In this document: piece by piece, positions 4,694 to 62,580 of the stretch
Position numbering within the stretch: position 1 is the first letter of the stretch
Layout of the letters: each line of letters begins with the position of its first letter
Source: Candidatus Flemingiibacterium sp.
GTDB lineage: Bacteria; Bacillota; Clostridia; Oscillospirales; CAG-272
Reading direction: 5' to 3'
Assembly (NCBI GenBank): GCA_045634005.1
Contig: JAZQZL010000003.1
Span: forward strand, 13,038-77,037
Length of the DNA stretch: 64,000 nucleotides
Program-made: the position numbers and the translations under genes
Notes under the pieces: generated by a model
What the model saw: only the letters and a program-made list of their open reading frames with translations
Database searches by the model: none
What the model was told of the DNA's origin: nothing

Positions 4694-4702
4694 GGAGCAT
4701 AT

Positions 4703-17288: not shown

Positions 17289-17487
17289 AATTGCCTCCCG
17301 TTAAAGTTTGTCCACATACTTAAAGTATATCACAAAACATTTTAAATGTAAAGATGATAGAAAACTTAAAATAAAATTTCCATTTGTGCGAACAAATCTT
17401 ATTTTTTTGCGTCTAATATGTCAGATATGAGATTTTTTGGTGTCTTATACTTATGAAAGGCCCTTTCAGACACAGGAGGTGGACAGA

Positions 17488-18042
17488 TTGACAGATGAAG
17501 CTATAATTGAGATGTATTTTTTGAGAGATGAGTGCGCGATAGCGGAAAGTGACGCGGCATACGGCGCGTACTGCCTTGCCGTGGCAAACAACATACTCCC
17601 CTCACGCGAGGACGCAAGGGAGTGTGTCAACGACACGTGGTTGCGTGCGTGGAACAGCATTCCGCCGCAAAGACCGAGCGTGCTTCGACTGTTTTTCACG
17701 AAGATAACGCGAAATTTAGCATACAACAAGGCTCGAGAAAACGGTGCCGCCAAGCGAGGCGGTGAGCTTCACGCGGCGCTTGACGAGCTTGAGGGCGTAA
17801 TTGGCGAAAGCTGTATCGAGCGTCACATAGAAAGCTCCGAGCTAACGCGGATAATAAACGAATTTTTGGCGACGCTTGACGTGCGCGAGCGCGGAGTTTT
17901 CGTGAGAAGGTACTTTTTCGTTGAAGCAACGCGTGACATCGCGCAGAGATACGCTATATCAAACGCAAACGTGCTGACAGTACTTTCGCGGACACGCAAA
18001 AAGTTAAGGCGCCACCTTGAAAGGGAGGGATATACGCTGTGA
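17488..18042 (+). CDS. ECF-type RNA polymerase sigma factor
   Basis: Region 2 is REDARECVNDTWLRAW and region 4 is IAQRYAISNANVLTVLSRTRKKLR. The preferred start is TTG at 17488, 8 nt after AGGAGG; the track ORF starts at 17437. Confidence 0.85.
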   Translation: MTDEAIIEMYFLRDECAIAESDAAYGAYCLAVANNILPSREDARECVNDTWLRAWNSIPPQRPSVLRLFFTKITRNLAYNKARENGAAKRGGELHAALDELEGVIGESCIERHIESSELTRIINEFLATLDVRERGVFVRRYFFVEATRDIAQRYAISNANVLTVLSRTRKKLRRHLEREGYTL

Positions 18043-39162: not shown

Positions 39163-39239
39163 GACGTCACTGTGAAGATACGGTGAATTTTTGCCATTTT
39201 ATCAAAATCAAACACGAATAAGTTTCGTCCAACCGACAC

Positions 39240-39268
39240 TTGACATTGTTCGATGCAAAAGCTATAAT
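39240..39268 (+). promoter_or_regulatory. Perfect consensus promoter for the GH28 gene
   Basis: TTGACA (39240-39245), 17-nt spacer, TATAAT (39263-39268). Confidence 0.7.
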
Positions 39269-39294
39269 AATATTAAGTATAGTGAGGTGTTTAT

Positions 39295-40566
39295 ATGACT
39301 TACGATATTACCGCGTTTGGAGCCGTAGGCAACGGCATAACCCTTAACACTTCGGCAATTCAGTCTGCGATCGACGCTTGCAGCGACGCAGGCGGAGGAC
39401 GCGTAAACGTTCCTGCAGGCATATTCAAAACAGGCACACTGTGGCTCCGCTCAAATATAGAGCTGCATCTTGAACACGGTGCTACTCTTTTGGCATCCGA
39501 CAATCTTGACGACTATAACGGCGATGATGCATATGCACAGAATTTCGGCTATCCGGAGCTCGAGCAGTGGCACGCGAAGCACCTCATAATCGCGCTTGAA
39601 ACGACCAACACCTCCATCACCGGCTTCGGCACCGTTGACGGAAACTGCTACGCTTTCGTTGACGACGATTTTGAAAATATGCCCACCTACGGCTGGAGAT
39701 ACGGCAAGACCAAAATCAAGGATATGAGCGTGCTTCGTCCCGGTCCGCTCGTAGTATTCGTTGAATGCACGCACGTGGATATTCGTGACTTCACGATAAG
39801 AAACGCTCCCTGCTGGTCACTTCTCATTCACGGTTGCGAGTACGTATCTGTACGCGGATACAAAGCACTCAACCCACGAAATATGCTCAACTCCGACGGA
39901 CTTGACATCGACACCTGCCGCTACGTCACCGTTTCCGACTGTATCATCGACACCGGCGACGATGCGATTGCCATAAGATGCTGCGAGCATCACCTCAAAA
40001 ACAAAAATATTCACTGCGAATACATCACAGTAACCAACTGCGTTTTCCGCACGGGAATATGCGCCTTCAGGCTTGGCGTTGGATTTGGCACGATCAGGCA
40101 CGTTCAAATTTCCAATATATCCGTCGAGCGCAGCTGTATGCTCGTTCAGTTCTGTACCGCGTACCTCGAGAACGGATGCGCACACATCAGCGACATAAAT
40201 ATAAGCAACATATGCGCGACTGAAACAGACCGCTTCATCCAGCTTTTCACGAAAAACGGCGCGACCGTCAAAAATGTCACGCTTGAAAATATTAGCGCCG
40301 AATGCTGTGCGATGAGCTACATCGAATGCGAGGACGGCGCCGTCGAAAATATCACGCTCAAGGATATTGACATCACACTCACCGACAGAAAAACCGAGCT
40401 CACCGAGGCCGAATTCAAAAAGCGCGGCGCTCATCTGTTTAAGCTTCGCGGAGCCGCAGAGGTACGCCTCGACAACGTTAAAATCCGTGGCTCGCTTTAC
40501 GGCTGTGACGAGCCCATTTCCATAACCGATTGCGACGGCCTTGTAAAAAAAGATTGCAATTTCTAA
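39295..40566 (+). CDS. Glycoside hydrolase family 28 (polygalacturonase-like, right-handed beta-helix)
   Basis: DITAFGAVGNGITLNTSAIQSAIDAC...NSDGLDIDTC...GDDAIAI. No signal peptide is evident. Confidence 0.85.
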   Translation: MTYDITAFGAVGNGITLNTSAIQSAIDACSDAGGGRVNVPAGIFKTGTLWLRSNIELHLEHGATLLASDNLDDYNGDDAYAQNFGYPELEQWHAKHLIIALETTNTSITGFGTVDGNCYAFVDDDFENMPTYGWRYGKTKIKDMSVLRPGPLVVFVECTHVDIRDFTIRNAPCWSLLIHGCEYVSVRGYKALNPRNMLNSDGLDIDTCRYVTVSDCIIDTGDDAIAIRCCEHHLKNKNIHCEYITVTNCVFRTGICAFRLGVGFGTIRHVQISNISVERSCMLVQFCTAYLENGCAHISDINISNICATETDRFIQLFTKNGATVKNVTLENISAECCAMSYIECEDGAVENITLKDIDITLTDRKTELTEAEFKKRGAHLFKLRGAAEVRLDNVKIRGSLYGCDEPISITDCDGLVKKDCNF

Positions 40567-40570
40567 ATAA

Positions 40571-43393: not shown

Positions 43394-43400
43394 GCACAAA

Positions 43401-43428
43401 GAAAATCCGCCGATTTCGGCGGATTTTC
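43401..43428. terminator. Bidirectional terminator
   Basis: GAAAATCCGCCGA tt TCGGCGGATTTTC, then TGTTTTT. Confidence 0.85.
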
Positions 43429-43448
43429 TGTTTTTATTAAGAGTTTGA

Positions 43449-44363
43449 TTAACCCTTGTGCTCCTCTTTCCAGGTAAGCTCAAGAGCTGCCCAGTCACGC
43501 ATCTGGCGAAGTGCAGTCCATCTCTCATTACCGTTGTCGTCCATCTTATAGTCGTGAGAGTTGGTCGCTTCCTGAATCTCTGCATAATACCACTTGGTAG
43601 TATCAGCGTTATCGGGCCACTTGATCATAGTATCAAGCAGGTAATCCTTATGCGGTGCACGCTCAAGCGTACGGTTCACTATCTTCATCGTTTCTGCACG
43701 CGTTACCGCCTGATCGGGATGGAAGGTACCGTCGCCGTATCCGTCAACGATGCCGAGCTTGGAAGCTTCTTCAATAAACTTCTCTGCCCAGTGAGCCTCG
43801 ATGTCGGAAAATTCGGTCGTCTTGCCCGCTGTAGTATCGTAGAACGAAGATGCGATCTTGATAAGCTCTGCTCTGGTGATCGTATCGTTCGGCTTGAACG
43901 TACCGTCGGTATAGCCGTCGAGTACGCCAGCGTTTGCAAGAGTGGAGATCGCTGTGTTGTACCAATCATCCTCTGCAACGTCGGTGAACTTATTGGTCTG
44001 TGCCCAATAGTGATTACGCGCGTTGTCAGTAAGCATACGGAAGAAGATAGTTACAACCTCCGCACGGGTGATATTTGCCTCAGGACGAACGGTTCCGTCG
44101 GGATAACCGATGATGTAACCGAAGTGGTCGTCCTTTTCAAGCATTATCTCTGTGTAGGTGTTGGTAAACTCTATCTCGGTTTCCTTCTCCTTAACCACAC
44201 TAACAACGCCGTCCTCATCACTCGAGGTCACGTTGAGAGTATAGCCGTCGATCTCGGATCTTCTTTCAACGACCTTGTACTGACCGGAGAGAAGCTTTAC
44301 CGATGCGCTCTCGCCTGCCTTGATAACGACAGTTTCCACAAAGGTAAACTCGTCGCCGTTCAC
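43449..44363 (-). CDS. C-terminal Ig-like half-domain + three SLH domains; in frame with the upstream giant ORF
   Basis: Three SLH repeats (e.g. FTDVAEDDWYNTAISTLANAGVLDGYTDGTFKPNDTITRAEL). The only start is a GTG with no RBS or signal peptide. It shares its frame with 44382-49736, from which a single TAA separates it. Confidence 0.8.
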   Translation of the reverse strand: MNGDEFTFVETVVIKAGESASVKLLSGQYKVVERRSEIDGYTLNVTSSDEDGVVSVVKEKETEIEFTNTYTEIMLEKDDHFGYIIGYPDGTVRPEANITRAEVVTIFFRMLTDNARNHYWAQTNKFTDVAEDDWYNTAISTLANAGVLDGYTDGTFKPNDTITRAELIKIASSFYDTTAGKTTEFSDIEAHWAEKFIEEASKLGIVDGYGDGTFHPDQAVTRAETMKIVNRTLERAPHKDYLLDTMIKWPDNADTTKWYYAEIQEATNSHDYKMDDNGNERWTALRQMRDWAALELTWKEEHKG

Positions 44364-44381
44364 CTTGAAAATATCAAAGGT

Positions 44382-47300
44382 TTATTCAGTAGGCGCATCT
44401 GCATCGTCGGGTGCAACGAGAGTCTTGCTTATCGTAAGGGTGCCGCGCGGGATAACGGGAATCACGATGTTATTATCTTTAAACTCACCGTAAATCTCAA
44501 CGTCGGACCAAGGCATAATAAAATTATCGTCAGCTGCAATAAACGCCGCATCCATCTTCACGTTTATAGGATCGTCCCAACCCTGGAACGTGCCCGAGCC
44601 GGTGGGATCCTCGATAATGTCGTGTACTGCGCCGGGAATAACCTCGTAGGTTTCGTAAAGCACGCCGTCAACGTAGTATCTGACCTCGTAAACGCCGTCG
44701 TGCTGACCGTAGAGAACTACATCTCTTGCGGGCATTGTGAAGGTTGCAGCGCCGGTAACATTGACCTCGTTGGAGTGCCAGCCATTAAATGCAAATCCAT
44801 CGTAATCATCCAGCTTGTCTGCAATCGTAACGGTTGCTCCGTACATCACTCCGGTGAGTCCGTCGGGGATAACGATTCCCTCGGGGTCAATACCCGTGTA
44901 AACATAGGTCACGTTGTAGGTAAGACGGTCGTAGTAGAGGTTAAGCACGAGGCTTCCGTCGCCCTTAACGTATCCGAAGTATTCGTCATTATCGGACGGA
45001 GAGGAAACAAATCCCTCATAGGTCTTGATGTAGTCGGGATATGCACTTACGTAATGTCCGGTAACTGCGCTGAGTGTTTCCTCATCGCGAATTACCTCGT
45101 CGTAGTACTTGCCGTTGTGTTCCTTGGTGCCGGTACCCTCGAGCACCTGCTGCCAATATTTAATCTTGTAGTTAACGGTGTCAGCAGTAAAGCTACCGGT
45201 CAGAACAACGTCATTTGCAGGCATAGTAAACTCGCCGTTTGCAACTGTTGCATCATCGGTCGTCCAACCGCTGAAGGTGTAGCCGGCAATGGTATAGCCC
45301 TCGTGTACGTCAACGTCAGCGCCAAACTTGTAAGCTGCCGACTGCGGCACGTCTGCTCCGTCAGGGATAAGCGTGCTTTCTATAACGTAAGTAACGTTAT
45401 ATTCGTTTGCGGTGTAGTAGAACTTAAGCGTGAGTGTACCATCTGCATTAACGGTGCCGCCAAGCACGGTCTTTTCTGCATTCGCAAACGCAATACCGCT
45501 GCCTGCGGGTATATTACCTTCGGTCACGTCAGCGGAATAGGTGTAACCGTGGATAATGTGATTTGTGGCGGTTACCCTCTGATCGGTAACGCCTGTGCGA
45601 ACATCGCTTATGCCGTGAAGCACGTAGGTGTTGCCACTCTCTACCCAATGCTCAACCTTGTACGTAGCCGCATCTGCGGTGTAAGCACCGGTGAAGATCA
45701 CGTTGCTCTGCGGCATAGTAAATTCGCCGCCGTTTACGGTAACGTTTTGTGCACTCCAGCCGCTGAAGGTGTAACCGTCGATCTCATCGGCCGCCATAAC
45801 GGTTACGGTCGTGCCGTGAGCATATGCGGTATTGTCAACGGGAAGGACAGCGCCTGCGGGAGCAGTTGTATAAACGTAGGTTACCGTGTAGGTGTTTCTA
45901 TCATAGTAGAGCTTGAGCACAGTCGAGCCGTCGCCTGCGATAACGCCGGTACGGGTTGCCGCAGATTCGGTCTGATTGTAAGTGTAGCCCGCAACACCAA
46001 TAGGCGTTGCAGTCACCTGTGTGCCGGTCGGACCCGTAAGCGAATCGGTCTTGTACGGAGTAGATTCATATACACCGTCAACAGTCGTTTCAAGATAATG
46101 CTCTACCTTGTAGGGAGTATCGGTGTTTGCTACGAATCTGCCGACGAGCTCAACGTTGTGTGCAGGCATCTCAAAGGAGTCTATCTCCGTCTTGGTTCCG
46201 TCGTTGTTGCGGTACCATCCCTTGAACGTGTAGCCGGGAGCACTTGCATCAGTAGCAACGGTTACAGGCGACTTATATTCGTAGGATTCGGTAGTGGGAA
46301 GTCCGCTTGCACCCGCGGGAACCATACCCTCGTAAGAGTAGGTTACCGTGTAGGAAGCATAATCATAATAAAGCTTAAGAACAAGGGGAGCCTCGTGCGA
46401 GGAGGGCACGGTGCCGCTTGCAGTGCTTTCGCCTGCATTGTAGGTGTAGCCGGCAACGTCTATGGAAGTCGCGGTAACGTCCTGGCCCTCGTCGCCCTTA
46501 AAGGTTTCAGTGTACTGACTGTTTAGCTCATATTCGCCGTTTGCATTCTCAAAATAATGCTCAACGTAATATTCAAGGCCGGTGGTAGGATCAAAGTGAC
46601 CGAGAATAAGCACGTCACTTTGCGGCATTACAAAGCTTCCGGTAATAATATCGCGGCTTCCGTTGAAGTACCAGCCGTGGAAGTCATAGCCGCTTGCCGT
46701 AGGTGCTGCGGTAGGTGCGGGAACAGTCTGACCCCACTTATACGTACCGCCGAGCGAAGCCAGTCCACTTTGTGCGGGATCTGCATCGGCAGGAACGTTA
46801 CCCTCATAAGCATAGGTTACGGTATACTTAATTCTGTCGTAGTAAACCTCAAGGATCACCTCGCTGCTGCCGGTAATGGTTTCTTCAAGATACGACTTGG
46901 TGTAGTTGACCGTATATCCCTGAACGTTGAGAGGAAGCGCCTCAACATCCTGACCTACAGTTGCATTTCTGAACACCTCGGTCTTACTTTCGTCCAAGGT
47001 ATATCTGTTATTGTTTGCATTCTGGAAATAATGCTCAACAGAATATTCAAGATCGGTACGTGCCGAGAAATAACCGTGAAGCGTTACGTCATGAGCAGGC
47101 ATCGCAAAGCTTGCAGTATCTGCCGTTACCGTGCCGCCAAGGCTATACCAGCCGGTGAAGATATATCCTGCCGCACTTGCGTCGGGATTCACGGTTACGG
47201 TTTCACCGTACTTGAAGGTATCAAAGTACTCATCCAGTCTTGCCGCTGTAGGACTTGCCTTCGCGGGAACCGTACCAACATACTCGTAAGTAAGCGTATA

Positions 47301-49736
47301 CTCGTTTCTCGTATAGTAGAGTGTGAGCGTGAGGCTACCGTCTGCGGCAATAGCTCCGGACACAACGGTCTTGTTGCCGTTACCGTTGTCGTAGTCCTCA
47401 TCAAAGGTAAAGCCATCGTAATCGTTGGGCGCTGCAGTTACCTGATCGCCCGTAGCTCCCGAAAGATTTTCGGTATCCTCAAGAGTGAACGTACCGTCAA
47501 GATTTTCGATATAGTGCTCTACCTTGTATGCGGTATCTGTGCCCGGAACGTAGCGTCCGAGAAGAACAACGTCGTGATCGGGCATCGAGAACTCGGTAAG
47601 ATTACCCGTACCGAGTGCCTCATCCTGCGGATACCAACCAATGAAGGTGTATCCGGCAATCTCAAGCTCGCTCGGATAATTAACAGTTACGGTATCGCCG
47701 TAGGGCACATCAACGTGTGCATCGGGAAGGCTTGCCTCATCGTAAACCTGAAGTCCTACAAACTGATAAGTCACGTTGTAGGTATTGCGAGTGAAGTCGC
47801 CAACGATCAATACGTCACCAGAAGGCATCGTAAATTCGCCGTTTGCAATATCAGCGTCGTCGGTAGACCAGCCGCTGAAGGTATAGCCCGCCTTGACAGG
47901 TGCGGTAATGAGTGTATGCTCACTTCCGGGTAAGCGGTAATAGGTCGCATATTCTTCGCCTGCAACCTCGTATATTACTTCTTTAAGCTCAACAACAGGC
48001 GAATTAACTCTTGCTACTACGGTAGTACCGCTCATAACCTCGGCTGTACCGTAATTTGTTTCAACAAATCCGTTATTTGCTTCAATCTCATCAGCGTGAG
48101 CGTCTATAGTTGCATAGTCGGGTGTCACGTTGAGAGTGAGAATAAGCATCTTTCCGTAGAAATCTGCGCCACCTACCGAACGCGGCTCGGTAGATACGTA
48201 GTTTGCGTCAAAATCAAAGCCCTCAACCGTAACGGTGTTGCCGGAAACGGTAGGTCTGAGGTCAGACGCTACTGCAGGTGACCAGGTTCCGTCCGCGAGC
48301 TTCTCTGATGTAGCAACGGAAATGCTGTTCGTACCGTTCGGAATAGTAAAGAACTCCGAAACAGCGTCTACGAGTGTCGTTTCCTCGCCGAGGGTAATAG
48401 TCGGCTCCGCGAGCTCCGCGCTGATCTCATCAAAAATCATCGCAAGGCTGTGAGAGGTATCGGGAGTGAGATAATATCCATTATCGGGAGTACCGGTTCC
48501 TGCGGTAATATTTCCGCTGCTTTCGCTGTAGGAAGCACTCGGGTAGTTACTCGAGAGATAGTGCATGAACTTGTTGGAATTGCTACTGCCGAGCTGTGTG
48601 CCGTCAGCGCCTTCCTCAACGCCTATCGTATAAACCTTAATGTTATCATCCTTAAGGACCTTCGCGTAGTTTATAGCCGCACCGGCAACGCTCGCCTGAT
48701 AGCTGCTACTGTGTGTAGGTGCACCATCGGTGAATACTATAACCACCTTATTTCTGCCCTGTGTAGCCTCGGTCTGCTCGTGCGATGCAAAGAGAAGGTC
48801 TGCAAGGTACATACCGTAGTCAACTGCGGTAGCTCCGCCGGGATCAAGCGCGTCCATAGCGGAAATAAGCGTTGTCTTGCCTGCGGCATCAACAGTCGTA
48901 AAGTCCTTAACAACCTGTGTATAGTTGTAACCGCTTCTGTTCTTATCGTCGCCCTCTGCAAGAAGATTGTTGTCGTCATAGTAGTCGTTCGATGCGAACT
49001 TAATAATCGAAATGCGGTGCATCATAGACTCGTCGCTACCAAAGGCAGCGTTGTACTCCGCGGTAGCCGAGATAAACTCGTCAACAGCCGCCTTGAGAAG
49101 ATCTATCTTCGCGCCGCCCGCATTGGTTACGACAGTAGTTTGCGCATAAAGCTGTACTACGTCGTAATTCTCCGAGCGTGTGACGTTCGGGGTAAGTCCC
49201 GCTTCAAGCTCGGGATAAACGTAAGTACGGTTATTGCGGCTACCGTAGTAGTAATAGCGGTATCCGTTGCCATCGTACCCTACGCTGGTTACGCTGGTGT
49301 ACGAGCCGTTGGCATTTTTGATATAGAGCGTACCGTTAGAAGAAACGTTGTAATATACTCTGTTGCCAAAACGCGTTTCTTCTGCGTATACGGCAGTATA
49401 CGAGGTTTCAACGGTATCGCTGAGCGTATCGTCCATACTTCCGGACATATCGAGTACAAGTGCAATATCCGTAGGTACTGCCGCCTCTACTCTGCTGACT
49501 CTTCCCGTTGTATGTGCCTGAACAACAATGTCAACGGTACCGTCCGGCATTCCGTTAACAAGGTGCGGCTGTGCATACTTGGCAAGAATTATGCCATCGC
49601 CCTGATTGTCGTTCATCAGTACGGGAGTTTCCGGAAATGCAGAAACTGTAACCGCCGATACGGGGATAACCGATACCGGAATGAACGATACAACCATAAG
49701 CACGGATAAAACGAGTGCCATAAGTCTTTTCTTCAT
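44382..49736 (-). CDS. Giant secreted adhesin: signal peptide, vWA (MIDAS) domain, 9 Flg_new-like (Listeria-Bacteroides) repeats interleaved with 6 MucBP-like modules
   Basis: The signal peptide is MKKRLMALVLSVLMVVSF...SA and the MIDAS motif is LVLDMSGSMDD. Repeats are of the form GY.F.GW....(F.MP..DV.L.G.F) alternating with Y.VEHY....G.Y......G..G..V.A......GY.......G.....G...L.LYY.R..Y.V.Y. It ends ...TISKTLVAPDDADAPTE*. Confidence 0.9.
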   Translation of the reverse strand: MKKRLMALVLSVLMVVSFIPVSVIPVSAVTVSAFPETPVLMNDNQGDGIILAKYAQPHLVNGMPDGTVDIVVQAHTTGRVSRVEAAVPTDIALVLDMSGSMDDTLSDTVETSYTAVYAEETRFGNRVYYNVSSNGTLYIKNANGSYTSVTSVGYDGNGYRYYYYGSRNNRTYVYPELEAGLTPNVTRSENYDVVQLYAQTTVVTNAGGAKIDLLKAAVDEFISATAEYNAAFGSDESMMHRISIIKFASNDYYDDNNLLAEGDDKNRSGYNYTQVVKDFTTVDAAGKTTLISAMDALDPGGATAVDYGMYLADLLFASHEQTEATQGRNKVVIVFTDGAPTHSSSYQASVAGAAINYAKVLKDDNIKVYTIGVEEGADGTQLGSSNSNKFMHYLSSNYPSASYSESSGNITAGTGTPDNGYYLTPDTSHSLAMIFDEISAELAEPTITLGEETTLVDAVSEFFTIPNGTNSISVATSEKLADGTWSPAVASDLRPTVSGNTVTVEGFDFDANYVSTEPRSVGGADFYGKMLILTLNVTPDYATIDAHADEIEANNGFVETNYGTAEVMSGTTVVARVNSPVVELKEVIYEVAGEEYATYYRLPGSEHTLITAPVKAGYTFSGWSTDDADIANGEFTMPSGDVLIVGDFTRNTYNVTYQFVGLQVYDEASLPDAHVDVPYGDTVTVNYPSELEIAGYTFIGWYPQDEALGTGNLTEFSMPDHDVVLLGRYVPGTDTAYKVEHYIENLDGTFTLEDTENLSGATGDQVTAAPNDYDGFTFDEDYDNGNGNKTVVSGAIAADGSLTLTLYYTRNEYTLTYEYVGTVPAKASPTAARLDEYFDTFKYGETVTVNPDASAAGYIFTGWYSLGGTVTADTASFAMPAHDVTLHGYFSARTDLEYSVEHYFQNANNNRYTLDESKTEVFRNATVGQDVEALPLNVQGYTVNYTKSYLEETITGSSEVILEVYYDRIKYTVTYAYEGNVPADADPAQSGLASLGGTYKWGQTVPAPTAAPTASGYDFHGWYFNGSRDIITGSFVMPQSDVLILGHFDPTTGLEYYVEHYFENANGEYELNSQYTETFKGDEGQDVTATSIDVAGYTYNAGESTASGTVPSSHEAPLVLKLYYDYASYTVTYSYEGMVPAGASGLPTTESYEYKSPVTVATDASAPGYTFKGWYRNNDGTKTEIDSFEMPAHNVELVGRFVANTDTPYKVEHYLETTVDGVYESTPYKTDSLTGPTGTQVTATPIGVAGYTYNQTESAATRTGVIAGDGSTVLKLYYDRNTYTVTYVYTTAPAGAVLPVDNTAYAHGTTVTVMAADEIDGYTFSGWSAQNVTVNGGEFTMPQSNVIFTGAYTADAATYKVEHWVESGNTYVLHGISDVRTGVTDQRVTATNHIIHGYTYSADVTEGNIPAGSGIAFANAEKTVLGGTVNADGTLTLKFYYTANEYNVTYVIESTLIPDGADVPQSAAYKFGADVDVHEGYTIAGYTFSGWTTDDATVANGEFTMPANDVVLTGSFTADTVNYKIKYWQQVLEGTGTKEHNGKYYDEVIRDEETLSAVTGHYVSAYPDYIKTYEGFVSSPSDNDEYFGYVKGDGSLVLNLYYDRLTYNVTYVYTGIDPEGIVIPDGLTGVMYGATVTIADKLDDYDGFAFNGWHSNEVNVTGAATFTMPARDVVLYGQHDGVYEVRYYVDGVLYETYEVIPGAVHDIIEDPTGSGTFQGWDDPINVKMDAAFIAADDNFIMPWSDVEIYGEFKDNNIVIPVIPRGTLTISKTLVAPDDADAPTE
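44480..47930 (-). repeat. Coding tandem-repeat region of the adhesin (about 9 diverged units)
   Basis: The protein-level periodicity described above. The units are diverged at the DNA level. Confidence 0.8.
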
Positions 49737-49851
49737 AGGTGTATATCTCCTTTCACGCGTCGGGCGGACTCGTTATGAAAAGCCACCTTAAGCGTGTAAT
49801 ATATTCTCAGCAGCGTGTGTTTTTTCAAAACAGTGTCTACTGGGTCAATTT

Positions 49852-49881
49852 AATTATACCACCAAAATCCGTTTACTGTCA
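49852..49881 (-). promoter_or_regulatory. Promoter for the adhesin gene
   Basis: On the minus strand: TTGACA (49881-49876), 18-nt spacer, TATAAT (49857-49852). Confidence 0.55.
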
Positions 49882-50051
49882 ACATAATATAATATATTCC
49901 ACCTTTTTGCATTATCTTCTCCAATTTAAACAAATAATACCCCATCGTTATATGTGTTCTGCATATCATATTGTGCTGAAATGTCGAAAAATGCGCTTAA
50001 AACCTGATGTTTTTACAACTCATCTTTAATTTTTCCTCGCAAATTAAAAGA

Positions 50052-50090: not shown

Positions 50091-52199
50091 TTACTTTCCG
50101 TATTTTTCGAGTAAATAATCGCAGTTTACGACCTTCTCGCAGATACCGAATCGGCTGAAGTAGTAGTGGTTTGCCGCCTCAAATCCGATTGCAGGATTCT
50201 TATTCATAAGAGCGAGCATATTGACAGCGTTTTCACGTTCGTCGAGAACGATATCGTAAAGCTCCTTGTTCGTGCCGCCGTTATCTCGAAGGCTTACGAA
50301 TTTCGAGAGATTAAGCGACGATCTGAAGAGGCTGTAGCCTGCCTCTGCCATTACCCTCAGCTCCTCATTATCGTCATTTTCGATGAGAGCAAGTCCCTCT
50401 TTCCACTTCGTGCAAAGCTTTGTAAGCTGATCTATATATACGTCCTCCGGATAGAACTTCGTAGCACCGCGCTCTGCACCGCGCCAACGGGTAAGATCGT
50501 CGTAGGCATAGCAGGTCATAGTGGCACGGTAGCCCGTAGGCTCCTCATAGAACAGTGTAGACGGGCCGGAATTCTGCGGGCCGAAATACGCAACGTTGAG
50601 GCTGGACGGGAATTCGGAAAACGCCTCAGAAAACAGCTTTGTAGCTTTTACCATATTATCGCTGATCGTGGGGATCTTCGCATTCTCAAAGAAATACTTG
50701 CAAGCGTAGAGAAGGTTCATCGAGGGATATCCGCCAAGCGTCCAGGAAAGCTGAACGTGGTTTACGCCAGCGTCGCGAAGGCCTGACATCATCTTGTCAA
50801 CCTTATCAAAAACGGGCAGCGCGGGAACGGTCGAGCACTCCCAAGTATTGTTGATCTGCACCTTTGCGGCAGTTTCAAGACCTCTCTGTTGTGCACGCTT
50901 CCACATTGCGAGCGATCTCTCGCCGGGACCGATAATATTAAGCGAATAGTCTGCGAGTGTACGCTCAAGTCCACCTATGGTATATTTGATACCGGACTCG
51001 GCAATGCTCTCGACGATAACTCTTTCGGGCAAGTGGTCGATGACGTCAAATCTTGCTTCGAGGGTGTCGCAGTCCCAAGAGAAATCGAACACCTTAATGC
51101 TCGGGTCAACTCTGTCAACGCCGGCACGGAAAGCGTGGAATATCTCGCCGATAACCTCGCCGACGGTTCTCTGACTGCATCTCGGACAGTTGCACTTTTC
51201 GGGTACGTGAACGTGAGAATAGCAGTTGGTAAGATTTTCGCTCTTACACATACAGATAAATCCGCCGATAAGGGGTGCGTTTCTGCAAATCGTTTCAAGA
51301 GCGTTAGAAAGGTAGTCCTGAACCTCCTTTGTAGAGGTGCACATACAGATATGCTCGTCATTCGACTCGTGTCCCTTTATGTGAGGATACTTTTCAAAGA
51401 ACGCCTTGTTCATCGAGCGAGGCTCGTTCAAATAAAGGTATATCTTGATGCCGTATTTATCGCATCTCTCGGTAAACTTTTTGAGGTTTGCAAGGCGCTT
51501 TTCATAGCCTGCCGAAAGCTCCTTGTTAAACGGAAATTCGGTAAGAAGATACAGCACGCCCTGAAGGTAAATTCCGTTAACGCCGACACGGCTGTAGCTC
51601 TCGAGAAGCGAATCGGGACAGTACGTTTCGCTGTCAACGTCGAGACACTTCTGATAGAGGCCGGAGAAAAGGTAGATAATTCTCGCGCCGAAGTTTTCCT
51701 TGCCGGAAAGCTCTACGTCGGGCATTATGTAATCAAACTCGAAGGGCTTCTTGCCTTCAAGCGAAAGCGTGCTCATAGAGAGCTTGATTCTCGCAAGCGC
51801 GACCTTGTCGGATTCGGTAATTTCCTTCCAAGCAAGTCTTTCGCAAACGGGCTTCTTGCCAAGCTTAATGTCGAGAAAGTCCTCCTCGCGGAGAAGAATA
51901 GCGAGCTCGTCCTCATCGGTTTCAAGTAACTCAATAAGCTGCTCGTACGGCATAAGGTGCCACATAGCACGGATTATCGTGATGTAGCCGACTCTAAGCC
52001 AAACGTCACTCTTCTGATCCTCCATAATACCCATAGCCGCGCCGAGTTCTTTAATGTTTTCGGGCGTGGTTCCGAGTGTCTTTGCTATCTTTTCGTACGT
52101 AAAAAATTCAAGCGCGCGGTATACGAACGCACATTCAAGCGTCGGAAAATGCGGTATTTTAACGGGCGCTTTATCGAGCTTCGGAAGTTCAAATTTCAT
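50091..52199 (-). CDS. Uncharacterised clan-GH-A / GH42-like TIM-barrel protein, paralog B (CxCxxC cluster intact)
   Basis: 702 aa. IYLYLNEPRSM is a candidate NE acid/base motif. Cys cluster: CMCTSTKE...NCYSHVHVPEKCNCPRC. Collinear with 54241-56355. Confidence 0.85.
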   Translation of the reverse strand: MKFELPKLDKAPVKIPHFPTLECAFVYRALEFFTYEKIAKTLGTTPENIKELGAAMGIMEDQKSDVWLRVGYITIIRAMWHLMPYEQLIELLETDEDELAILLREEDFLDIKLGKKPVCERLAWKEITESDKVALARIKLSMSTLSLEGKKPFEFDYIMPDVELSGKENFGARIIYLFSGLYQKCLDVDSETYCPDSLLESYSRVGVNGIYLQGVLYLLTEFPFNKELSAGYEKRLANLKKFTERCDKYGIKIYLYLNEPRSMNKAFFEKYPHIKGHESNDEHICMCTSTKEVQDYLSNALETICRNAPLIGGFICMCKSENLTNCYSHVHVPEKCNCPRCSQRTVGEVIGEIFHAFRAGVDRVDPSIKVFDFSWDCDTLEARFDVIDHLPERVIVESIAESGIKYTIGGLERTLADYSLNIIGPGERSLAMWKRAQQRGLETAAKVQINNTWECSTVPALPVFDKVDKMMSGLRDAGVNHVQLSWTLGGYPSMNLLYACKYFFENAKIPTISDNMVKATKLFSEAFSEFPSSLNVAYFGPQNSGPSTLFYEEPTGYRATMTCYAYDDLTRWRGAERGATKFYPEDVYIDQLTKLCTKWKEGLALIENDDNEELRVMAEAGYSLFRSSLNLSKFVSLRDNGGTNKELYDIVLDERENAVNMLALMNKNPAIGFEAANHYYFSRFGICEKVVNCDYLLEKYGK

Positions 52200-52225
52200 T
52201 GTATTTTACCTTGCCTTTCGGATGA

Positions 52226-54088
52226 TTATTTTACTTCTTCGAGATAGCCGTACTTTGCAAGGAATGCAAAATATTCGAGGTTCTTCTCGATGCCGACATC
52301 GGAGGTTCTGGTGTTGTGAGCCGCATCTCTGAGGCGGATAGCGTCGAGAGCGGTTCTCTCGGGAGAAATAAGTCCCCAAACCATTTCGTGACAAGGCTCA
52401 ATAAACCTGCGCTCTGCAACGGGCACGCGTGCCTGCGAGAACGGAAGTCCCTTGGTTGCCTTGCGGTAACGAATGCTGTTTGCCTTCTTTTCAGCCTCGG
52501 AGAGCTCGCGCTCGGGAAGCTCCTTGAGATAACCGTCAGCCCAATGCTCGGGAAGCGTAGGAGTTACAACGCCGTCAAAGAAGCGGTTGAAGGAGTCCAT
52601 TCTGCCGAGATAAAGCATTTCTGCCGCATCGCATCTCCACTTTGCGTCGATTTTTGCAAGCTTTCCTGCACCTGCAAGGCCTGAAATGTAGTTCTTTCTA
52701 AGCTCCAGCCATTTTGCCGCGGTAGGCTCGAGTGCCGCCGCAAGCTTTGCAAAATGCTCTCTGTCGCCGCAGACGAGTACTGCGGTGTAAGCTGCAAGCA
52801 TAGGAATGAGCTTTGCCATAAGCTCGGGAATCATTCCGTCGAAGATACGTGCGTCTGCGTGGTGATAGTCGCCGCGGTTGTTGCCACAGCCGCTCACGCA
52901 CCAGGTGGTGGGAATATCAACGGTGGTCTCCGCCTGCCAGCAGTCGTCGGACATATTACCCGGCTGAAGCGAGAAGCGAACGTCGGGACAGAAGCGATCC
53001 ATCGCCTCATTAAAGAGCATATCGCCAAAGAACGGACTTGAAAGCGGCGACTCTCTGATTCCAATAGGCTGATTAAGCACCTTCGTCGCATAGCAGGTCA
53101 GGGTGTCGATGCTTGCAGCCGCGAGAATTCTCTTGTCGTGATTTGCGAAGAACGCGGCGAAGCCGTAGCGCTCCATTGAGAATATAAGACGGAGCGTCTT
53201 TTCGGGCTTCGGAAGCACGCCGTCCTCGATAAGCTTTTTAAGCATAAGCGCAACCTCAACTCCAACGCCAAAGCCCTGTGAGTCGTCGGAGTAGAAGGGC
53301 TCGTAAAGGTGAGCGAGAATCGCAAACTCGTCCTCAGACTTGCCGGGAATGGTTGCTGTTACAGTGTAGATCTCGCCGTCGTAAAGCTTGGTGTCCATAA
53401 CGCCGTGAAGGACTACCTTACCCTTTGCGAGAAGATTGAGAAGCTTCATACCGGTCTCGCAGGAAACGCAGAAGATCGATGTCATCGGATCTTCCTTAAG
53501 GTTGTACCAGCCGATCTTACCGTGACCGTTGGTCCACGAGGGAACGTCCGGCTCGTGCTCGGCGGTGTTGAACGCCGCGAAAACGATGCCTGCGCAGCCG
53601 GCACCCGCAAGCGTTACGCAAAGCGGATTCTGCGGCGGAAGATAGCCGCGGTAGAACACGTACTTACCCTTGCAGTCGGGGTTCTTCGGATCGAGCGTTG
53701 CATAGTCAACAAGCTCCGCGGTAATACCGCCCTCGGGAGTGGGCGCGGAATATTCGGAAACGTATATCGTGGAGATATCGGTATCCGCGATCATTTCGTT
53801 TATAGGCTCAACGATCTCAAGTGTGCTGCGTCCGCAAAGGTCCCACGCCTGAGGCATTATGAAGTCGAAATTAGCGGTTTCTCCGTCAGCCTTGTGCGCG
53901 ATACGGCGAACGTCGGAAAATCCTGCTTCACGAAGCACCTTTTCGCACCAAGCGGTAGACTTATTGAAGGTGTTATATCCGCGCGGATCCTCGAGCTCCT
54001 TGAGTGTCTTGATGGTTTCGAGCGTTCTCTTTTCGTCATACAGCTTGCAAAGCGTATCGTAGAGATCGGATTTGAAAAAAATGCTCAT
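52226..54088 (-). CDS. Hypothetical protein, possibly M28/DUF4910-type aminopeptidase-like
   Basis: 620 aa. ANFDFIMPQAWDLCGRSTLEIV resembles the DUF4910 N-terminal pattern. The function call is weak. Confidence 0.8.
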   Translation of the reverse strand: MSIFFKSDLYDTLCKLYDEKRTLETIKTLKELEDPRGYNTFNKSTAWCEKVLREAGFSDVRRIAHKADGETANFDFIMPQAWDLCGRSTLEIVEPINEMIADTDISTIYVSEYSAPTPEGGITAELVDYATLDPKNPDCKGKYVFYRGYLPPQNPLCVTLAGAGCAGIVFAAFNTAEHEPDVPSWTNGHGKIGWYNLKEDPMTSIFCVSCETGMKLLNLLAKGKVVLHGVMDTKLYDGEIYTVTATIPGKSEDEFAILAHLYEPFYSDDSQGFGVGVEVALMLKKLIEDGVLPKPEKTLRLIFSMERYGFAAFFANHDKRILAAASIDTLTCYATKVLNQPIGIRESPLSSPFFGDMLFNEAMDRFCPDVRFSLQPGNMSDDCWQAETTVDIPTTWCVSGCGNNRGDYHHADARIFDGMIPELMAKLIPMLAAYTAVLVCGDREHFAKLAAALEPTAAKWLELRKNYISGLAGAGKLAKIDAKWRCDAAEMLYLGRMDSFNRFFDGVVTPTLPEHWADGYLKELPERELSEAEKKANSIRYRKATKGLPFSQARVPVAERRFIEPCHEMVWGLISPERTALDAIRLRDAAHNTRTSDVGIEKNLEYFAFLAKYGYLEEVK

Positions 54089-54143
54089 AGTTTTCTCCTC
54101 AAAAAATTTTTAGCAGTATTAATTTACGCTAATTATCACAAAT

Positions 54144-54172
54144 ATTGTATCACAGCGTCGTATGTTTGTCAA
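54144..54172 (-). promoter_or_regulatory. Promoter for the 620-aa gene
   Basis: On the minus strand: TTGACA (54172-54167), 17-nt spacer, TACAAT (54149-54144). Confidence 0.55.
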
Positions 54173-54240
54173 TACACTTTTCAATAAAAGTCATTGAACA
54201 AAACGACGAAGAATAAGGGCCTCAAACGCGTTTTTTTGCT

Positions 54241-56355
54241 TTACTCGTTAGAGCCGTACTTTTCGAGCAGATAGTCGCAGTTTACAACCTTCTCACAAAT
54301 ACCGAAGCGGCTGAAATAATAGTGGTTGGCAGCCTCAAATCCGATTGACGGATCCTCATTCATAAGTGAGAGCATTTTGAGTGCATTTTCTCTCTCGTCG
54401 AGAACGATGTCGTAAAGCTCCTTTGCACTACCGCCGTTATCGCGCATTCTTATGAATTTCGAGAGATTGCGCGACGATCTGAATATGCTGTATCCCGCCT
54501 CTGCCATTATGCGAAGCTCCTTATTCTCACCGTCACCGATAAGCTCAATACCCTCCGCCCACTTCTCGCAAACCTTTTCGAGCTGGCTTATAAATACGCC
54601 CTCGGAATATCTGTTTTTGTATCCCGGACGAGCACCGCGCCAGCCTGCAAGATCGTCGAAAGCATAGCAGGTCATCGTAGCGCTATATCCGGTGGGCTTT
54701 TCATAAAAGAGCGTGGATGCGCCCGCGTTCTGCGGGCCGTAGTACGCGACGTTGGCATTGGATGGGAACTCGCTGAATGCCTCGGAGAATATCTTCGTTG
54801 CCTTCTGCATATTCTCGCTGATTTCGGGAATTTTCGCGTTTTCAAAGAAATATTTGCAAGCGTAAAGCAGGTTCATCGACGGGTATCCACCAAGCGTCCA
54901 CGAAAGCTGAATGTGATCTACCTCCGCCTCGCGTAGCTTTGTCATAAGCTCGTCAACCTTACCGAGCACGGGAAGCGCCGGCACCGTCGAGCACTCCCAC
55001 GTGGTGTTGATCTGCACCTTCGCCGCGGTTTCAAGTCCGCGAGCCTTGGCAGCCTGCCACATCTTGAGCGATCTGTTTCCGGGGCCTAAAATATTGAGCG
55101 AATAGTCGGAAAGTCGCTGTCTTTCGCCTGCGATCTCAAATTCAATGCCAGACTCGCAGATGCTCTCCACGATAACTCTCTCGGGAAGATGTCTTATGAC
55201 GTCAAGTCGCACCTCAAGGTCGTCGCCATCCCACGAAAAGTCAAACACCTTCATCGTCGGGTCTACGCGGTCAACGCCCTCTCGGATAGCGTGGAACAGC
55301 TCACCTATGACCTCTCCGATGCTTCTGTCCTTACAGCGCGGACAGCTTGTAAATCCCGAATTAAGCACGTGCGAATAGCAGTTGGTGAGATTTTCACTCT
55401 TGGCCATACAGATAAATCCGCCAAGCAACGGCGCATTTCTGCACACGGTTTCAATCGCATTGCTTATGTAGTCGCGAACCTCCTTCGTTGAGGTGCACAT
55501 ACAGATGCGCTCGTCGTCCGCATAGTGTCCCATTATGTGCGGATGCTTCTCGAAAAACGCCTTGTTCATCGAGCGCGGCTCGTTTATGTAAAGGTAAATC
55601 TTTATGCCGTATTTCGCGCATCTTTCGGTAAAGTTCTTGAGATTTGCCAGACGCTTTTCAAATCCTGCTGAAAGCTCCTTGTTAAACGGAAATTCAGTGA
55701 GCATATAAAGTACGCCCTGCAGATAAATGCCGTTGACTCCAACTCGGCTGTAGCTCTCAAGAAGCTCGTCGGGACAGTACGTTTCACTGTCAACGTCAAG
55801 GCACTTCTGATAAAGTCCCGAGAAAAGATATATGATTCTCGCGCCGAAATTTTCCTTGCCTGAAAACTCTGTTTCGGGCATTATGTACTCAAACTCAAAC
55901 GGCTTTTTGCCTTCAAGCGAAAGCTCGCTCATCGAACGCTTTATCCTTGCAAGTGCTGCTTTATCGTCCTCGGTGATGTCCTTCCAGACAAGCTTTTCGC
56001 ACACAGGCTTGTCCCAAAGCTTGTAGTTGAGGAAATCCTCCTCTCGAAGAAGTATCGCAAACTCATCTTCACCTATATCGAGAAGCTTCAAAAGCTGCTC
56101 ATACGGCAAAATGTGCCACATCGCGCGAATGACCGTGATGTATCCCTTGGTAAGCCACACGTCATTTTGCCGGTCGCATGAGATGCCCATAGCATCGCCA
56201 AGAACTCTTACATTTTCGGGTGTAGTTCCCAAAATTTCCGCTATTTTTTCATATGTGAAAAATTCAAGCGCACGGAATACGAACGCCGCCTCTTCGCTCG
56301 GAAAATGCGGCAGTGGAACGGATGCCTTACCAAGCTTCGGAAGCTCAAATTTCAT
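54241..56355 (-). CDS. Uncharacterised clan-GH-A / GH42-like TIM-barrel protein, paralog A
   Basis: 704 aa. Long identical runs with paralog B: RIIYLFSGLYQKCLDVDSETYCPD, LTEFPFNKELSAG, QLSWTLGGYPSMNLLYACKYFFENAKIP, EAANHYYFSRFGICEKVVNCDYLLEKYG. Confidence 0.85.
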   Translation of the reverse strand: MKFELPKLGKASVPLPHFPSEEAAFVFRALEFFTYEKIAEILGTTPENVRVLGDAMGISCDRQNDVWLTKGYITVIRAMWHILPYEQLLKLLDIGEDEFAILLREEDFLNYKLWDKPVCEKLVWKDITEDDKAALARIKRSMSELSLEGKKPFEFEYIMPETEFSGKENFGARIIYLFSGLYQKCLDVDSETYCPDELLESYSRVGVNGIYLQGVLYMLTEFPFNKELSAGFEKRLANLKNFTERCAKYGIKIYLYINEPRSMNKAFFEKHPHIMGHYADDERICMCTSTKEVRDYISNAIETVCRNAPLLGGFICMAKSENLTNCYSHVLNSGFTSCPRCKDRSIGEVIGELFHAIREGVDRVDPTMKVFDFSWDGDDLEVRLDVIRHLPERVIVESICESGIEFEIAGERQRLSDYSLNILGPGNRSLKMWQAAKARGLETAAKVQINTTWECSTVPALPVLGKVDELMTKLREAEVDHIQLSWTLGGYPSMNLLYACKYFFENAKIPEISENMQKATKIFSEAFSEFPSNANVAYYGPQNAGASTLFYEKPTGYSATMTCYAFDDLAGWRGARPGYKNRYSEGVFISQLEKVCEKWAEGIELIGDGENKELRIMAEAGYSIFRSSRNLSKFIRMRDNGGSAKELYDIVLDERENALKMLSLMNEDPSIGFEAANHYYFSRFGICEKVVNCDYLLEKYGSNE

Positions 56356-59445: not shown

Positions 59446-59494
59446 AATGAGTTTATTTTTATCAATAATGTTAGGATTTCGAGAGGTGGCTGAA

Positions 59495-60598
59495 ATGACG
59501 GATAATAAAAAGGCGATAGAAATGATTGACAAAATCACAAGAAAAGCTCACGGTTGCTACGTTCCCGAAATAAAAAACGCATACGAAATAATCTCAAACA
59601 GAGCAAGAGAAAGGGCGGAAGAAATATACGGTGTACCGCTACACAAGAAAATTTCAAAACGGCTGGAATGGGAGCTTGATGCAATAAAAGAGCGCCATCA
59701 CGAAATATATTTCTATATTACTGAGCAACTTGTACGTAAAACATATGAGAATGGTTACGTAATTTTCCCGTACAATGATTGGGGCGCATCGTTGGTTGCG
59801 TACTTACTTGGAATAACAGATATTAATCCTCTGCCGCTTCATTATGTTTGCGACGGCTGCAGGCACTTGGAATTCACCCACACTTGTGACGATAAGCTCT
59901 GTCCCGAATGTGGAGCTGAGCTTCGAGTTGACGGTTACGATCTTGCCATTGAAACTTTACTCGCGGACGGTAGCAGAGTACCGGATCTTCAGATAAGCAT
60001 ACCGGCAGAACTGCGGAATGAGTGCGAGGAAATATTGTGTGAAATACTTTCAAGCGAGAAGATTATACGGTGTGAGGGCGCGACAAAAAACACCGAATAT
60101 TATTACATACTTCCAAAGTCGGCAGACATTGATACCGGCAATAATACAGAGTTTCTGAACGATCATTTCATACGTATATCAATCGTAACAGATCCGCACA
60201 TTACGTTGCTTAACGAACTTAAACGACGAACGGGAATGGCGGTAGAATGCGATGTGTCTGCTGTATTTGAATCAACACGAAAAGAAGCGAGCATTTTTGC
60301 CGATGATATTATCCGTGAGCTGACCTCGCACGGTGTGCCTGCGTTTTTGGCGTACAGATTTATGAAAACGATAAAAAGAGGAGCGCTAAAACCGGGGGCG
60401 AAATACGATGGTTGGGTAGACACGCTTAGCGAGTATGGCGTGTCCACTGAGTATATTGCGTCGCTTTCAGAGATTGCATATTTGCCGACAAAGGCAGAAA
60501 CCGTTTCAAAAGCAAAAATCGAGCGTGCGCTTGCTGTGTATGACAAGCACTATGCGCAAGAATTTATGGAAGCCTGCGAGAAATACGGGGTATTGTGA
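59495..60598 (+). CDS. Miniaturised PolC-like protein (PHP-proximal segment, zinc finger, degenerate palm motif, C-terminal fingers-like segment)
   Basis: AEEIYGVPLHKKISKRLEWELDAI...GYVIFPYNDWGASLVAYLLGITDINPLPLHYVCDGCRHLEF...CPECG...VPDLQISI. The ATG at 59495 follows GAGAGGTGG; the track ORF begins at 59447. Confidence 0.7.
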   Translation: MTDNKKAIEMIDKITRKAHGCYVPEIKNAYEIISNRARERAEEIYGVPLHKKISKRLEWELDAIKERHHEIYFYITEQLVRKTYENGYVIFPYNDWGASLVAYLLGITDINPLPLHYVCDGCRHLEFTHTCDDKLCPECGAELRVDGYDLAIETLLADGSRVPDLQISIPAELRNECEEILCEILSSEKIIRCEGATKNTEYYYILPKSADIDTGNNTEFLNDHFIRISIVTDPHITLLNELKRRTGMAVECDVSAVFESTRKEASIFADDIIRELTSHGVPAFLAYRFMKTIKRGALKPGAKYDGWVDTLSEYGVSTEYIASLSEIAYLPTKAETVSKAKIERALAVYDKHYAQEFMEACEKYGVL

Positions 60599-61407: not shown

Positions 61408-61524
61408 ATTTGGTAAAAATGGAGTTTGAATAATACTCCCTAAAAATGAATGTACCGAATTTGTCGCACGCACCTTGCGCTTTAATGGATTTTATGATAT
61501 ACTGTATTCAAAGAGGTGACTGCA

Positions 61525-62580
61525 ATGTACACTAAACAGCCGAAAAAGCTTTTGATTATGAATATCCTCGACATACTGCGCCGTTATAGCGACGCAGATC
61601 ATCGTCTCAGCCAAAGGGATATTATCGATATACTGCAAAGCGAATACAACATGGAAGCCGACCGTAAAGCGATCAAGCGTAATCTGATGAACCTGATCGA
61701 TTTCGGCTACAACCTTGAATATTCCGAAAGCATCCGCATAAACAAAAGCGGAGAAGAAGAAACAATATACACCGACTGGTACCTTGAGCGTGACTTTTCG
61801 GATGCCGAGCTTCGCCTTCTGATCGACGGTTTGCTGTTTTCAAAGCATATTCCTTACAGCCAATGCAAGGAGTTGATTGGCAAGCTCGAGGGACTGTCCA
61901 ATCAGTATTTCAAATCCAAAGTGCGACACATACGCAATCTTCCTGTTGATCAACCCCAAAATGCCGAACTTTTTTACACAATTGAGATATTAGACGAAGC
62001 CATTGAAAAAAATCGTCAGGTAACGTTCTATTATGCGGATTATGGGACAGACAAAAAATTGCATCCGCGCAACAACCGCAAAGGCGAACCACGCGAATAT
62101 CTTGTAAATCCTTACCAGATGGTAGCAACCAACGGCAGATACTATTTGATCGGCAATTATGAAAGTCACGATAATATATCCCATTACAGACTCGATCATA
62201 TTCGGAATATCAAACTGCTTGACACTACCGCCAAGCCCCCAAACAAGGTTGAAGGAATGGAGAACGGGCTTGATCTTCCGAAACATATGGCGGAGCATAT
62301 CTATATGTTTTCGGGAAAAAGTGAGCGGGTAATTCTGCGTACTTCCCCCGGCATGGCAGGTGAGTTGATCGATTGGTTTGGGAATGGAGTAACATTCAGC
62401 GATGAAACTGAGGATTCAGTTGTAGCAACTGTCATCGCAAGCATTCCGGCGATGAGATTTTGGGCGCTGCAGTATGCGCCGTATGTAACGGTGCTGGCAC
62501 CGCAGAGCTTGGTGGATGTGGTGAAAGCGGATTTGGAAGTGGCTAGGAGAAAGTATAAGGAGGAAACAAAGAATGAGTAA
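61525..62580 (+). CDS. wHTH-WYL-WCX transcriptional regulator (BrxR/CapW-like architecture)
   Basis: The N-terminal wHTH is LIMNILDILRRYSDADHRLSQRDIIDIL. The WYL core is QVTFYYADYG...REYLVNPYQMVATNGRYYLIGNYESHDNISHYRLDHIRNIKLL. The C-terminal part is RFWALQYAPYVTVLAPQSL. Confidence 0.85.
   Translation: MYTKQPKKLLIMNILDILRRYSDADHRLSQRDIIDILQSEYNMEADRKAIKRNLMNLIDFGYNLEYSESIRINKSGEEETIYTDWYLERDFSDAELRLLIDGLLFSKHIPYSQCKELIGKLEGLSNQYFKSKVRHIRNLPVDQPQNAELFYTIEILDEAIEKNRQVTFYYADYGTDKKLHPRNNRKGEPREYLVNPYQMVATNGRYYLIGNYESHDNISHYRLDHIRNIKLLDTTAKPPNKVEGMENGLDLPKHMAEHIYMFSGKSERVILRTSPGMAGELIDWFGNGVTFSDETEDSVVATVIASIPAMRFWALQYAPYVTVLAPQSLVDVVKADLEVARRKYKEETKNE

Follow-up and report, generated by a model that had tools for sequence, protein, structure and literature searches.

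A probable nonsense allele parts a giant adhesin from its S-layer homology modules in a Candidatus Flemingiibacterium contig

A giant adhesin gene on the minus strand of a Candidatus Flemingiibacterium sp. contig is cut by one in-frame TAA, and the frame behind the stop encodes three S-layer homology (SLH) modules, the predicted anchor of the protein to the cell wall. The gene lies in the window studied here, a stretch of 64,000 nucleotides (contig JAZQZL010000003.1 of assembly GCA_045634005.1, positions 13,038 to 77,037 of the forward strand). Positions given below are those of the window, and the coordinates of the features are collected in Table 1. The question is whether the TAA marks a mutated gene, a wrong base, a stop that ribosomes read through, or the border between two genes. 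The comparisons below indicate that it is probably a real nonsense allele of one ancestral adhesin gene.

On the minus strand the frame runs ...GTLTISKTLVAPDDADAPTE-TAA-TFDIFKVNGDEF..., and the TAA is codon 1785. Translation of the minus strand between 43400 and 44600 gives ...RGTLTISKTLVAPDDADAPTE, the stop and TFDIFKVNGDEFTF..., followed by three SLH-like segments and the terminal stop. The frame past the TAA is the same as that of the upstream open reading frame (ORF), as the sequence-only reading of this DNA had claimed and as both translation and the ORF table confirm, and it stays open for 310 codons up to the TAA at 43451-43449. The first candidate start in it is the GTG at 44363, 7 codons downstream of the stop. 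An open frame of this length past the adhesin stop is not due to chance, the expectation being about (61/64)^310, roughly 3e-7. The adhesin is also the sole same-frame ORF pair in the window whose separating stop falls inside a protein domain.

A scan of the GTDB representative genomes yielded four close orthologs, all from metagenome-assembled genomes (MAGs) of Candidatus Flemingiibacterium, a genus classed as Clostridia incertae sedis. They are 88% (L001), 85% (L002), 73% (L003) and 67% (L004) identical to the window protein, and all are uninterrupted at the site (...AEYTFDIFK...). L001 is a single ORF of 2,109 residues and L003 a single ORF of 2,130 residues (about 2,117 when counted from the aligned Met); contig ends truncate L002 and L004, yet both are continuous across the stop site. 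From first to last, the 2,096 window codons align colinearly with the L001 and L003 ORFs. In the column of the stop the window has TAA, and L001 to L004 have TAC, TAC, TAC and TAT. Because the orthologs carry a Tyr codon there, a single transversion at 44382 explains the stop. This search for a sense codon, which the sequence-only reading had proposed, bears out its suggestion of a recent nonsense mutation, since the four orthologs are colinear and uninterrupted, have Tyr at the stop position and include two complete copies that are single ORFs; the orthologs do not consistently consist of two genes.

More distant proteins agree. When the joined C-terminal 412 residues were searched against a protein database, the window's own 304-residue piece came back at 100% identity; the other matches are at most 63% identical locally, and those covering the stop site about 50%. 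All 14 aligned homologs that cover the site are continuous, and ten of them have Phe or Tyr in the column. The genomic context is shared as well. Synteny between the window and both L001 and L002 covers the genes of a 210-residue class II aldolase, a 360-residue IF-2B-family protein, a thioredoxin-reductase-like protein, a response regulator and glutamine synthetase, the aldolase and IF-2B-family genes lying downstream of the adhesin in all three, and the nucleotide identity of both loci to the window is 78-91%.

The protein domain at the stop tells the same. With both sides of the TAA joined, the Pfam family DUF5979 matches at 31.6 bits over model positions 1-104 of 104, whereas the downstream piece alone gives 24.3 bits over positions 30-104, under the cut-off of 25 bits. 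The match runs end to end only when the two sides are joined, and therefore the stop is inside the domain. The sequence-only reading had put it in the middle of an Ig-like domain of Cna-B/SpaA-like pattern. The Ig-like domain stands, but a position after strand A, about 19% into the domain, is more exact than the middle. The Cna-B/SpaA-like pattern holds approximately, in that the model of a homolog resembles pilins of Streptococcus pyogenes, but the Pfam family is DUF5979, and the Pfam SpaA model reaches 16.8 bits, under its cut-off.

In 15 aligned sequences the Lys of TISK, which precedes the stop, and the Glu of KVVE, which follows it, are invariant, and the Asn of FTNTY, also past the stop, is at least 90% conserved. 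This arrangement is as expected for a pilin-type domain with an intramolecular isopeptide bond, and such a bond is predicted here. The fold evidence comes from the AlphaFold model of a homolog of the window protein, P0015, which is 52% identical and comprises DUF5979 and SLH parts. The model (predicted local distance difference test, pLDDT, 88.2) has a beta-sandwich of nine strands and, after it, a helical SLH bundle, and the residue equivalent to the window stop is a Tyr, the second residue of beta-strand B. In Foldseek its beta-sandwich matches S. pyogenes major pilin domains, and its SLH part matches the SLH domains of Bacillus anthracis Sap and Paenibacillus alvei SpaA (6bt4, 3pyw, 6cwc), with target template modelling (TM) scores of 0.64-0.70. 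A sequence search of the PDB with the joined domain gave nothing significant (best E-value 0.25).

The two pieces complement each other in domain content. On the upstream product Pfam finds a VWA domain, seven Flg_new/Flg_new_2 repeats and a SHIRT-like segment, and NCBIfam additionally finds List_Bact_rpt. Residues 635-1739 contain nine F-x-M-P-x-x-D/N-V motifs interleaved with seven YKVEHY-type modules. On the downstream product Pfam finds SLH (PF00395) at 132.6 bits in 3 stretches. The signal peptide and the SLH modules thus sit on separate frames in the window with the TAA between them, and in L001 and L003 they are in a single polypeptide. No pyruvyl-transferase family is listed among the Pfam matches of the scanned window ORFs.

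The expression signals likewise belong to one gene. The promoter-like site and the Shine-Dalgarno (SD) region stand only before the upstream ORF, and the hairpin at 43400-43429 is the sole strong terminator-like site from the promoter to the end of the SLH frame; therefore both frames form one predicted transcription unit. The gene upstream of the adhesin has its own terminator at 50079-50052. For the downstream piece, the only promoter-like site before the stop scores 10/12, within chance expectation. Past the TAA, the in-frame GTG and ATG codons have SD duplex energies of +0.2 to -2.9 kcal/mol, apart from one internal GTG deep in the domain at -7.7, against -12.7 for the upstream ORF. None of these candidate starts has a usable SD or a hydrophobic N-terminus like that of a signal peptide. 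The sequence-only reading was thus right that the SLH part lacks start signals and a signal peptide of its own.

The age of the lesion can be judged from the frame behind it. By the Nei-Gojobori method on the codon alignment, the ratio of nonsynonymous to synonymous substitution rates (dN/dS) between the window and L001 is 0.126 downstream of the stop and 0.141 upstream, and between the window and L002 it is 0.118 downstream and 0.125 upstream. Pairs of intact genes give 0.09-0.16 downstream of the stop. The dN to the outgroup L003 is not elevated in the window (0.159, compared with 0.180 for L001 and 0.173 for L002). Replacements unique to the window at positions where the other four sequences agree number 3 in 309 downstream codons, the TRAE motifs are untouched, and no further stop or frameshift occurs in the downstream frame. 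Because this frame is without decay, the lesion, as judged from the alignment, would be either very young relative to the species divergence or not real, that is, a base error.

We propose the following course of events for a real nonsense allele. The minus strand from 49736 to 43449 is a single ancestral gene, about 2,096 codons long, of a Candidatus Flemingiibacterium-like gut Clostridia genome. Its protein, exported through Sec, comprises, in order, a signal peptide, a VWA head with a metal ion-dependent adhesion site (MIDAS), a long Flg_new-type stalk, the DUF5979 beta-sandwich, the three SLH modules and, last, a conserved tail. Attachment to the wall would come about through binding of the secondary cell-wall polymer by the SLH modules, as in B. 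anthracis Sap. A single transversion at 44382, C to A on the sense strand, would have turned Tyr codon 1785 from TAC into TAA. Ribosomes would terminate there, and a protein of 1,784 residues would be exported by means of its signal peptide. This product would keep only strand A of DUF5979 and would lack the SLH anchor, so that it may be released or degraded but would not be displayed; we infer secretion without anchoring from the domain content. The remaining 930 nucleotides would be transcribed on the shared mRNA and give no exportable translation product.

Several observations weigh against this reading. The allele is known in one copy: neither piece clusters with any other of about 15 billion proteins, and both come from one NCBI contig of 83,916 bp. 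Searches of the genome and metagenome collections found no sequence of the same species, which leaves the base without independent confirmation. Exact look-ups of both pieces in the assembly index returned no match, and six peptide patterns scanned against metagenomes brought up nothing but distant SLH proteins of 27-46% identity. In addition, a total lack of decay downstream is equally expected from a consensus error.

An error of sequencing, consensus or assembly is the main rival; an assembly error was also among the explanations of the sequence-only reading. The organism would then have TAC (Tyr) at codon 1785 and make a full-length, anchored adhesin, and the A in the third position of that codon (44382) would be a false base of a MAG consensus. 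The 310 downstream codons are intact and constrained like the upstream part, as for a functional gene; the sequence is a singleton and probably MAG-derived, with nearest relatives that are all MAGs of an uncultured genus; and at the stop codon the window differs from the orthologs by a single base. However, substitution errors in a consensus are rare, and the base context of 44382-44384 is neither a homopolymer nor a repeat. The scanned long ORFs of the window (UvrA, UvrB, ProRS, Tex, GlnA and others) are full-length in Pfam except for a DNA polymerase III alpha fragment at 59447-60598, and the neighbouring genes match the lengths of their orthologs; by these signs the assembly does not look error-prone. 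An independent nonsense codon also exists in a homolog from another MAG. On this balance we infer that the base at 44382 is probably real, and regard an error as unlikely, though far less so than the explanations that follow.

That other homolog is a more distant gene at 3980-8071 of contig CAYSKU010000005.1 (GCA_964431775.1; L034), which is split by a single in-frame TAG at 6824-6826 (...IYYKLD-stop-ADTYTVTY...), with no N in the locus. It is called as a 948-residue protein with VWA, GBS104-like Ig and Flg_new domains and a 356-residue SLH protein, both in one frame. Where it has TAG, homolog P0007 has Gln (...IYYNVLQADTYTVTY). By this alignment the lesion is an independent CAG-to-TAG event at a different site, also upstream of the DUF5979/SLH tail, and the Flg_new repeat and the DUF5979 and SLH parts that come after the TAG remain intact. 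The independent stop shows that such lesions occur in this gene family.

Five other apparent splits in homologs were rejected. P0015 (L037), P0010 (L038) and P0007 (L039) are interrupted by N runs in scaffolds (about 1459-1468, about 1681-1690 and 4623-4722, respectively). All three begin at the internal Met of an F-x-M-P motif ('MPxxDV'), where the gene caller restarts past the N run, and are artefacts. P0018 (L036) lies on a contig of 2.25x coverage whose first 240 nucleotides are unrelated sequence, and P0023 (L035) is what is left of a gene truncated at its 5' end, with about 900 nucleotides of non-coding DNA before it. L035-L039 thus lend no support to recurrent splitting; L034 alone does so, and one extra case is not a pattern. 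That point nonsense mutations recurrently remove the anchor, under selection, from giant VWA/Flg_new/SLH adhesins of gut Clostridia is improbable; the L034 stop speaks for it, the part behind the stop being intact there as in the window. If it were true, anchor loss would switch surface display on and off at the level of the population, with phages or host antibodies as possible sources of the pressure, much as the premature stops do in inlA.

The sequence-only reading had also offered partial readthrough, in which a leaky or programmed TAA would give released and anchored forms from one mRNA. The frames are identical, the downstream part is intact, both parts are on one predicted transcription unit, and every stop codon shows some low basal readthrough. 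The stop is, however, absent from the four orthologs and the distant homologs, so that nothing has been selected to use it. The 95 nucleotides from the stop codon onwards have a minimum free energy of -23.6 kcal/mol, and shuffled versions average -21.3 (z = -0.70); this is no better folding than by chance and rules out a readthrough-stimulating RNA structure there. In bacteria TAA is, as a rule, the stop that leaks least, and it is the main terminator here, closing 29 of the 41 non-overlapping long ORFs in the window. No tRNA gene was found in the window, which counts against readthrough as well as against an altered code. With the stop not conserved, no RNA structure behind it and TAA as the main terminator, the two-form proposal is left unsupported and is very improbable.

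A true two-gene arrangement, in which the SLH piece is translated alone from the GTG at 44363 or a later start and rejoins the adhesin like an engineered split CnaB domain, is hardly credible. It could draw on the nearness of that GTG to the stop, and on the Lys on one side and the Glu and Asn on the other, a superficial likeness to split isopeptide domains. However, the in-frame starts all lack a usable SD, and the piece has no signal peptide and therefore would remain in the cytoplasm. No checked relative has a conserved two-gene layout: L001, L003 and homolog L005 are single ORFs, L002 and L004 are continuous, and other apparent splits are N runs in scaffolds.

An altered code or a suppressor tRNA reading TAA as an amino acid, for which the in-frame stop itself and nothing else speaks, is ruled out by stop usage and the tRNA scan of the window, the ORFs adjoining the adhesin also ending at the lengths of their orthologs, and we give it next to no credence.

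Table 1. Features of the interrupted adhesin gene, in window positions
Feature	Position	Strand	Basis or remark
Promoter-like site TTGACA-18-TATAAT	49853..49882	minus	12/12 consensus and TG extension; putative function
Shine-Dalgarno region (GAAAGGAG) before ATG 49736	49737..49756	minus	anti-SD duplex -12.7 kcal/mol
Upstream reading frame	44385..49736 (stop to 44382)	minus	1,784 codons, ATG 49736
Sec-type signal peptide	residues 1-28, 49653-49736	minus	by inspection; N-terminus MKKRLMALVLSVLMVVSFIPVSVIPVSA
VWA domain, MIDAS motif DMSGS	residue 96, 49437-49451	minus	Pfam and motif scan
DUF5979 Ig-like (pilin/CnaB-type) beta-sandwich	44151..44438	minus	Pfam, joined sequence only
Conserved Lys1771 (TISK, strand A), before stop	44424-44426	minus	homolog alignment
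In-frame TAA	44382..44384	minus	codon 1785; differing base 44382, + strand T here, G in L001-L003
Downstream ORF as called	44363..43449	minus	304 aa, GTG start
Glu1824 (KVVE), after stop	44265-44267	minus	homolog alignment
Asn1859 (FTNTY), after stop	44160-44162	minus	homolog alignment
Three SLH modules	43683..44132 (~44028-44132, 43857-43988, 43683-43811)	minus	Pfam; untranslated as written
Intact TRAE motif in each SLH module	44058-44069, 43866-43877, 43692-43703	minus	motif scan
Conserved C-terminal extension (WYYAEIQEATNSH...) past SLH	43449..43682	minus	ends at ancestral stop TAA 43451-43449
Bidirectional intrinsic-terminator-like hairpin, 13 pairs	43400..43429	.	just past SLH frame

Opposite the adhesin gene, the plus strand carries long ORFs that share its codon register: 43458-46526 (1,022 residues), 46557-47933 (458 residues) and 48450-49709 (419 residues). 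These are shadow ORFs, because only 5 of the 2,096 adhesin sense codons are TTA, CTA or TCA, which become stops when read antisense. The ortholog loci likewise carry long antisense ORFs.

Upstream of the adhesin gene, on the same strand, 50091-56355 holds three consecutive large ORFs of 702, 620 and 704 residues with no Pfam match. The 702- and 704-residue products are paralogs with 77% identity over their full length, and none of the three has a hydrophobic N-terminus like that of a signal peptide. With no such N-termini and with two of them mutual paralogs, these ORFs were rejected as part of the adhesin.

Elsewhere in the window, the stretch 39200-40568 has no blastn match in the syntenic L001, L002 and L004 and contains a GH28 glycoside hydrolase gene (ORF 39295..40566 on the plus strand, 423 residues), which points to a lineage-specific insertion that separates the response-regulator gene from the thioredoxin-reductase-like one. 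Between 58000 and 64000 the G+C content drops from about 0.50 to 0.38-0.42, and this part may be acquired DNA. It holds a 383-residue ORF (59447..60598) whose match to the DNA polymerase III alpha NTPase domain is confined to the first half of the model (positions 3-132 of 260), a WYL/WCX-domain protein (61516..62580) and two ORFs with no Pfam match. At 17437-20417 a sigma-70 region-2 protein of 201 residues is followed, with a 4-nt overlap, by a 792-residue ORF that has no Pfam match, a layout that by analogy is that of an extracytoplasmic function (ECF) sigma/anti-sigma factor pair.

Several known systems resemble parts of the adhesin. Sap and EA1 of B. anthracis and SpaA of P. alvei also have three tandem SLH modules with TRAE motifs. 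The SLH structures of Sap and SpaA, crystallised with pyruvylated cell-wall-polymer ligands, superpose on the P0015 model, and ligand binding is predicted here. These are S-layer proteins with N-terminal SLH modules, whereas in the adhesin the modules are C-terminal on a VWA/repeat protein and are cut off from the exported part by the stop. The pilus tip adhesins GBS104 and RrgA share the VWA domain with the MIDAS motif DxSxS, and L034, a distant homolog, contains an Ig domain like that of GBS104. With the isopeptide domains of S. pyogenes Spy0128 and other pilins the adhesin shares the fold, as seen in the DUF5979 part of the homolog, and the Lys, Glu and Asn at the expected positions, the isopeptide bond being a prediction. 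Unlike the VWA-headed pilus adhesins, it has no sortase signal and no pilin motif and would be a single giant SLH-anchored polypeptide.

By analogy, the closest mechanistic counterpart is the set of premature-stop alleles of inlA. Nonsense mutations in inlA of Listeria monocytogenes lead to a truncated, secreted InlA that lacks the wall-anchoring region, as stated in a passage of PMC5131979 that cites Nightingale 2005. In both cases a point nonsense mutation lies in a large Gram-positive adhesin gene upstream of the C-terminal anchor (PMC5131979). In both, the predicted product retains its signal peptide and binding domains, loses the anchor and would be released, and the lesion is specific to a strain or lineage, with intact genes in close relatives. 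The anchors differ, InlA being attached covalently through sortase and LPXTG, whereas the SLH anchor is non-covalent. For inlA, many isolates with phenotypes confirm the alleles, whereas the present allele is known from one unverified sequence of an uncultured gut bacterium. Thus no new kind of system or mechanism is required; the event is of a known type, in an uncultured lineage of gut Clostridia.

For annotation, the calls of 1,784 and 304 residues should become one gene flagged as interrupted, the 304-residue 'S-layer homology protein' not being an independent protein. If the base is real, the strain would release a VWA adhesin of 2,100 residues instead of displaying it, which could alter adhesion in the gut, and the event would be of the same kind as the inlA stops that attenuate Listeria.

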